This document shows, one piece after another, positions 1 through 581 of a stretch of 581 bases of DNA; position 1 is the stretch's first letter, and each line of letters starts with the position of its first letter. Made by a program: the position numbers and the translations under genes. The notes beneath the pieces were generated by a model. It was not told where the DNA came from and did not search any database. It worked only from the letters and a program-made list of their open reading frames with translations. Origin of the DNA: Escherichia coli (lineage in GTDB: Bacteria > Pseudomonadota > Gammaproteobacteria > Enterobacterales > Enterobacteriaceae); assembly GCF_003334385.1 (NCBI RefSeq), contig NZ_QOWN01000163.1, one strand, 5' to 3'.

Positions 1-581
1 CTGACTGTTGTCAATCTCTGCCCACAGCGCCTCTGCCAGATGCGTTTTTCCTATCTTTTCCCGGAAAAGTTCCAGATAGCCCGCAGCATCATTGCTCGCC
101 CGTCCACTGGCTTCCACAAAAGCAGATTTACCCACCAGGTTGACGCTGCGCACATAAAACCAGAAATCCTTTCCGGGCTTAATGTGCGGACCGGAGACAC
201 TCCACTGACTGCCGGTCCCCAGATAACGGGCAGAGGTTTCCACCTGTGCGGCGTCTGCAATTTTTGCCTCCGAAAACCAGAACTCAAACTGCACCGTCGG
301 GTCATAAATGGTCAGTTTCGGGACTGCCGTTATCTGAAAATACCCCGGCGTCAGTTCAATGCTGGCCGGTGCCGCCGGTGCGTTAATCCGGAACGTGGTG
401 GTGGCGGGTTCGCCCTGCTGGCCATAGCTGTTAATCGCCCTGACCGTCAGGGTGTATTCCCCGGGAGGCAGGCCACTGAAACGGTGCTCCGTATCGGCAG
501 TGATGGCGGTGGTCAGCAGGCGGCTGTTCTCACCGCTTCCACTGGTCAGGCGCAGACTGAAGCGCACGCCCTTCACCACCC
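1..581 (-). CDS. J: Internal fragment (both ends outside the window) of a lambdoid phage/prophage tail-tip host-specificity protein, lambda gpJ-like (tip attachment / central tail fibre protein). Codons run on the minus strand from 579 to 1.
   Basis: Seen in sequence: the minus-strand frame 579..1 has 193 codons with no stop, and uses Leu CTG and GC-ending codons typical of enterobacterial genes. From memory of lambda gpJ: the translation shares stretches such as [21 protein letters not shown] and GRAS-DDA-GYL. Two FN3-type signatures are present ([22 protein letters not shown] and [22 protein letters not shown]). The track missed this frame, presumably because it has no start or stop inside the window. 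Confidence 0.85.
109..360 (-). other. Second, complete FN3-like domain module (residues about 74-157 of the window translation)
   Basis: Starts after the APAAPAS linker with [12 protein letters not shown]. It has a Trp-containing segment (FEFWFSE) and ends with the FN3-type signature [21 protein letters not shown]. Boundaries are approximate. Confidence 0.5.
382..581 (-). other. FN3-like domain module, N-terminal part truncated by the window edge (residues 1-66 of the window translation)
   Basis: Shows the FN3 F-G strand signature, with conserved Tyr, Val, Ala, Asn, Gly and Pro spaced as in [22 protein letters not shown], followed by TTTFRI. It is followed by an Ala/Pro-rich linker, APAAPAS. 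Boundaries are approximate. Confidence 0.5.

Follow-up and report, generated by a model that had tools for sequence, protein, structure and literature searches.

The window, that is, the whole stretch of 581 nucleotides of DNA that was analysed, carries an internal coding segment of the gene for the tip attachment protein J, the central tail fibre (positions 1 to 579, minus strand). In an open-frame scan of the 581-base window, the minus-strand frame running from base 579 to base 1 was free of stop codons over 193 codons; neither the start nor the stop codon of J is present and both ends of the gene lie outside the 581 bases. The translation matched the Pfam models Ig_J and Ig_J_second, adjacent and in the order expected for gpJ. 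The first model (PF24421) was matched by amino acids 2-68 over model positions 38-104 of 104 (E 3.5e-23) and corresponds to the C-terminal two-thirds of the first Ig/FNIII-like domain of J, FNIII-1, at 376-576 (minus strand), while the second (PF24489) was matched by amino acids 70-172 over model positions 2-104 of 105 (E 2e-39) and corresponds to the complete second Ig/FNIII-like domain, FNIII-2, at 64-372 (minus strand). The naming of the two domains follows the structural description of the lambda tail tip (PMC11101478). A search of solved structures returned lambda gpJ (8iyk_J residues 647-836, E 4e-72), and the alignment with lambda gpJ, which covers about residues 646-836 of 1132, was colinear with 61% identity and a single gap. 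The order of the two domains is thus shared with lambda gpJ (PDB 8IYK, 8K35 and 8XCI), from which 39% of the residues differ. The remaining stretch, at 1-63 (minus strand), comprises amino acids 173-193 and aligns with lambda residues of about 816-836; from this alignment, which also places the domain boundary, it would be the start of the alpha-helical shaft.

The strength of these matches is far beyond chance, and the identification of the window as an internal piece of a J gene is confirmed. An earlier sequence-only reading had proposed a gpJ-like gene here, with the genes upstream of J to the right, and had held that any novel content was more likely in the flanks than in the window itself. 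The gene and its orientation were borne out, the N-terminal side of J facing the right end of the window, and the window itself, a J fragment of an already known kind, holds nothing novel. No Rfam family was found at E ≤ 1 across the window, and inverted repeats were absent from the 581 bases. The sole direct repeat was one 13-nt pair, for which a chance origin is probable, and the composition profile displayed nothing but a gradual climb in G+C content from 54% to 64%. Siphoviridae, the label that the same reading had attached to the tail cluster, is a former taxon that has lost its formal status, and the long non-contractile tail morphology implied by it fits.

The plus strand was also inspected, as its frame 0 is free of stop codons across the entire window (1-581). 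A stop codon on this strand requires TTA, CTA or TCA in J, because plus frame 0 is in register with the J codons. These three triplets make up 0.9% of the codons of the closest J gene, so that none is found in 193 codons with a probability of 0.16, and lambda J contains an opposite-strand open run of the same kind with 705 codons. An antisense gene in plus frame 0 was therefore rejected as an effect of codon usage. The strand opposite J is likewise open in the closest relative (locus L001, 19836-20684, 283 codons).

The lambda tail tip provides a model for the role of this part of J. In lambda, gpJ is built from hub domains, two FNIII domains, an alpha-helical shaft, a beta-prism fibre and a receptor-binding domain, the shaft following FNIII-2 with helices that end at residues 841-861 (PMC11101478). 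In the closed state the tube is sealed by the FNIII trimer of J at the distal end of the tail, and after binding of LamB the shaft is partly refolded, the three FNIII strings dissociate and the hub can open (PMC11101478). By comparison, the window would code for most of FNIII-1, the whole of FNIII-2 and about 20 residues of the start of the shaft, and the parts of the J trimer encoded here would keep the tail tube shut at its distal end until receptor binding led to refolding of the shaft and dissociation of the FNIII strings, opening of the tube and exit of the DNA. Homology at 61% identity is the basis on which we infer such a lambda-like mechanism for this J variant.

The best DNA matches among complete genomes were 99.0% identical to the window and represent gpJ genes of Escherichia coli chromosomal prophages, and matches sampled across the range of identities all lay under features annotated as J. 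Prophages integrated at ompW or ydfJ (SCU-104, WP_174147695.1; DETEC-S792, WP_271290554.1) and Escherichia phage PhiR12_2 matched over the whole window with 98.1-99.0% DNA identity. Of 5426 complete E. coli genomes, 2020 contained J segments of this type; the carriers had a median of 2 and a maximum of 11 matching places, and 5781 of the 5796 places were chromosomal. Only 21 matches, all at 89% identity or less, were obtained from plasmid records. An exact copy of the window was found in none of the phage, E. coli complete-genome, plasmid, viral-contig, species-representative-genome and metagenome collections. A search with the 193-aa translation yielded mostly short partial J proteins and missed the full-length J proteins of the 99% relatives, so that frequencies are not derivable from it, and it contained no match covering the whole segment at full identity. 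Because of the lack of an exact match in the collections, the flanks of the window were inferred from relatives.

The source would most likely be a chromosomal prophage of E. coli or a very close relative. A free, replicating phage genome, in which the window would represent virion DNA rather than an integrated prophage, is unlikely. It draws on 122 matching records in the phage collection, headed by PhiR12_2 (98.1%) and including Stx2a-converting phages (96.7%), and on the intact reading frame of the window. Against it, the top matches at 99.0% are chromosomal prophages and the viral contig collection contains no exact match, and a real prior is not obtainable from collections so unlike in size and composition.

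A comparison at the level of single sites revealed that the window is composed of two sequence types. The three relatives at 99.0% identity (L001, L005 and L006) have zero differences from the window over 1-359 and differ from it at the same six sites. All six fall within 360-373, and their only effect at the protein level is in the linker between the Ig domains, which reads GV in these relatives and SI in the window. Two contigs from human gut metagenomes (L003 and L004), each 93% identical overall, have zero differences over 323-581 and 42 differing sites in 1-322; a 65-base pattern was found exactly in both of them, whereas a 160-base pattern spanning the distinguishing patch had no match in viral_contigs or genome_contigs. 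The SI linker variant is also present in these two contigs and in protein P0085. One crossover within the interval 323-359, with the L001/L005/L006 type on the left and the L003/L004 type on the right, or alternatively a conversion tract of 14 nt, would explain the pattern. The junction is ordinary lambdoid mosaicism, for which an assembly chimera could be the alternative. It is very unlikely that the junction, together with the adjacent 14-nt linker variant, goes back to a recent conversion event among the J genes of prophages sharing one host, or that the window comes from an atypical carrier of J such as a plasmid-borne or satellite-like element; if true, either would be a small addition to the well-known mosaicism of lambdoid phages.

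The junction also bears on the origin of the window as a sequence record. Short-read assemblies break in this part of J because several near-identical copies are present per genome, and the window might be a whole short contig or a chimera in which the J copies of co-resident lambdoid prophages were collapsed, so that it would have no single genomic context and could represent more than one prophage simultaneously. We consider this possible, yet less likely than not, and it is compatible with the identity of the window as a J fragment. In its favour are the copy numbers per carrier genome given above (median 2, up to 11), the many partial J proteins of this segment on draft E. coli contigs of 450-1000 nt, among them P0009, found on contigs with a full length of 519 and 517 nt, and the joining of two sequence types at one junction (323-359) within 581 bases. 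On the other hand, the size of 581 bases may be a mere artefact of how the sequence was cut, the junction is equally well explained by genuine recombination, a common event in lambdoid phages, and the bias of the protein search towards short proteins makes frequencies unobtainable. The contigs of 519 and 517 nt (L014 and L015) belong to draft O145:NM assemblies and carry a J fragment that covers most of the window segment; one of these sources calls it 'homoserine acetyltransferase, partial', apparently a mis-annotation.

The gene neighbourhood was derived from nine annotated relatives, whose identities range from 99.0% to 77.8%, from one further fragmentary match and from the two metagenome contigs. 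To the right, the sequence-only reading had predicted homologues of the tail-tip assembly genes M, L, K and I, and in the loci that serve here as a proxy this arrangement was recovered. The genes for I (tail assembly protein), K (C40 peptidase) and L lie right of J in 10 of 10 loci with that flank (the nine annotated relatives and L004, which was annotated with PHROGs), and M and the tape-measure gene are intact in nine of them. Beyond L, intact M, tape measure, T, G and major tail protein genes are present in 8/9 annotated loci, the degraded prophage L011 having a truncated M and lacking H, T, G and V; in L004, I-, K-, L- and M-like open reading frames are followed by the end of a tape-measure gene. 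This order corresponds to H-M-L-K-I-J of lambda, and the complete lambda neighbourhood, H-M-L-K-I-J-lom-stf-tfa, is that of the relatives of the window. By synteny, the window would be followed to the right by about 1.9 kb more of J and then by I, K, L, M and the tape-measure gene.

The spacer between I and J was found to be longer than in lambda (60 nt): in the close relatives it measures 249-344 nt and is devoid of annotated genes (L001, 22512-22760; L005, 17512-17761; L006, 17512-17855; a spacer of L009 is located at 14512-14854 and one of L008 at 14512-15362). In prophages of the O157 type it contains sodC in opposite orientation. Because of its extended length compared to lambda and the presence of sodC in O157-type prophages, the I-J spacer looks like an insertion site for extra genes, and cargo is thus not confined to the region downstream of J.

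To the left, where the same reading had expected side-tail-fibre genes and accessory cargo, stf-like tail-fibre genes or their remnants were present in all ten loci with that flank (nine annotated plus the metagenome contig L003), lom follows J directly in three of them (L006, L008 and L009), and the remaining cargo varies from locus to locus, so that this expectation also held in the proxy loci. The cargo comprises Eib-like adhesins, a SPATE protease, DinI-like genes, IS elements, a methyltransferase, hok and ogr, and pseudogenes of the type III secretion (T3SS) effectors EspF, EspV and NleG7 were found among the downstream genes of relatives. Eib, Lom, Bor and T3SS effectors are documented as prophage-borne genes (PMC8065619). 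In the window's own source, synteny would place a further stretch of J of about 1.0 kb to the left, then side tail-fibre genes, possibly preceded by lom, and variable cargo, and if it is a prophage, the junction with the host would lie beyond the left-side cargo.

Genes for YadA-like trimeric autotransporters related to EibD (E 1.5e-31) are located on the minus strand of L001 (14838-15998), L005 (9750-11303), L006 (9182-10504) and L007 (9811-11322). EibD is an immunoglobulin-binding protein, and Eib proteins are a known type of prophage cargo (PMC8065619). Each of the YadA-like genes is located downstream of a DUF4376 gene and adjoins a small hypothetical gene. The SPATE gene codes for an S6 peptidase of 1341 aa, a serine protease autotransporter of the SPATE class, combining a Pic/Hbp-like passenger with an EspP-like barrel; it lies on the minus strand between the tail-fibre/Eib-like genes and the att remnant of the ompW prophage (L001, 9980-14005; L006, 4343-8350), and a search of the literature library yielded no paper specifically on a SPATE in a lambdoid prophage at ompW. 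In L005, the gene at 12279-13796 (minus strand) codes for an stf-like side tail-fibre protein with collagen-like repeats matching the Scl and Lcl adhesin models. These repeats fit the collagen-like proteins that have been reported from E. coli prophages (PMC3368898).

The integration status of the relatives was examined for the closest of them, SCU-104 (L001), a lambdoid prophage of about 53 kb at ompW. The order of genes is intact ompW, int/xis, exonuclease, LexA-family repressor, cro, P, Q, tRNAs and lysis genes, followed by terminase, head and tail genes, J, tail-fibre remnants, the Eib-like gene, the SPATE gene and an ompW remnant. This remnant of 126 nt forms the boundary at the J end, with 122 nt that are 80% identical to the 3′ end of the intact ompW, and the duplication would fit an integration into ompW with a replacement end supplied by the phage. 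Other relatives at 99% are integrated at ydfJ. Since the portal gene of the SCU-104 prophage is annotated as frameshifted and its side tail-fibre genes are pseudogenes, it may not be viable.

The degraded state of some relatives raises a further alternative, namely that the window stems from a J remnant that stands alone or is badly decayed and has no functional tail module around it. Both L010 and L011 carry J as a pseudogene, L011 having also lost H, T, G and V, and the capsid gene of L008 is truncated. Even in degraded loci, however, I, K and L are kept beside J, and the window has an unbroken run of 193 codons and shares 99% identity with full-length J genes. The earlier reading had named an isolated J-like fragment, with no phage structural genes in its flanks, as the outcome that would speak against a tail module, and every surveyed J locus had neighbouring tail genes. 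A remnant is accordingly most improbable.

Two of the relatives depart from the usual arrangement in other respects. In L011, a tyrosine integrase (6464-7561, plus strand) is located on the J side beside dusA instead of at the far end, which suggests a rearrangement or a second element. In phage PhiR12_2 (L002), the J open reading frame at 8811-11675 (minus strand) comprises about 955-989 codons, the C-terminal stretch of about 190 residues of other J proteins being missing, and is followed by a separate open reading frame for a 163-aa 'tail fiber protein' at 8146-8637 (minus strand), with an IS element further downstream; possible readings are a J gene broken in two, an error in the sequence or a tip of another architecture.

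Among the relatives of the window, identity in the J segment does not extend to all other modules. The head genes of the 99% relatives are of the HK97 type in L001 and L006 and of the lambda type in L005 and L007, with homologues of the lambda E, D, C and B head genes in L005. The full J proteins of these relatives comprise 1157-1176 aa, compared to 1132 aa in lambda, with at least 94% agreement over the first approximately 900 residues, whereas over the last approximately 270 residues J of L001 and J of L006 are only 19-57% identical. The C-terminus of J in the close relatives is unrelated or weakly related to the LamB-binding domain of lambda (7-54% identity in the last bins). More distantly, J of Stx2a-converting phages (96.7% identity) and of the O157:H7 strain 2-6-2 (88.5%) represents the same gene and module, and loci of the O157 type carry sodC between I and J and remnants of T3SS effectors downstream, both of which are absent from the 99% relatives. 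Head type and receptor specificity are not fixed by the window because the 99% relatives differ in their head genes and in the receptor-binding end of J, and the window is a marker of the tail-tip module only, not of head type, receptor-binding end, cargo or intactness of a prophage.

With the rivals weighed, we hold with high confidence that the window is a piece of a lambda-type J gene from a lambdoid tail-tip module with a lambda-like mechanism and synteny, likely from an E. coli prophage. Many E. coli genomes carry this part of J as a repeat in several copies, which tends to fall on tiny draft contigs, and the source record may offer no flanks, so that the annotation of 10 kb on each side, as suggested by the sequence-only reading, is possibly impossible. 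The practical lesson is that a 581-base J fragment, while silent on head type, receptor specificity, cargo and intactness, is a reliable marker of a lambda-type tail-tip module.
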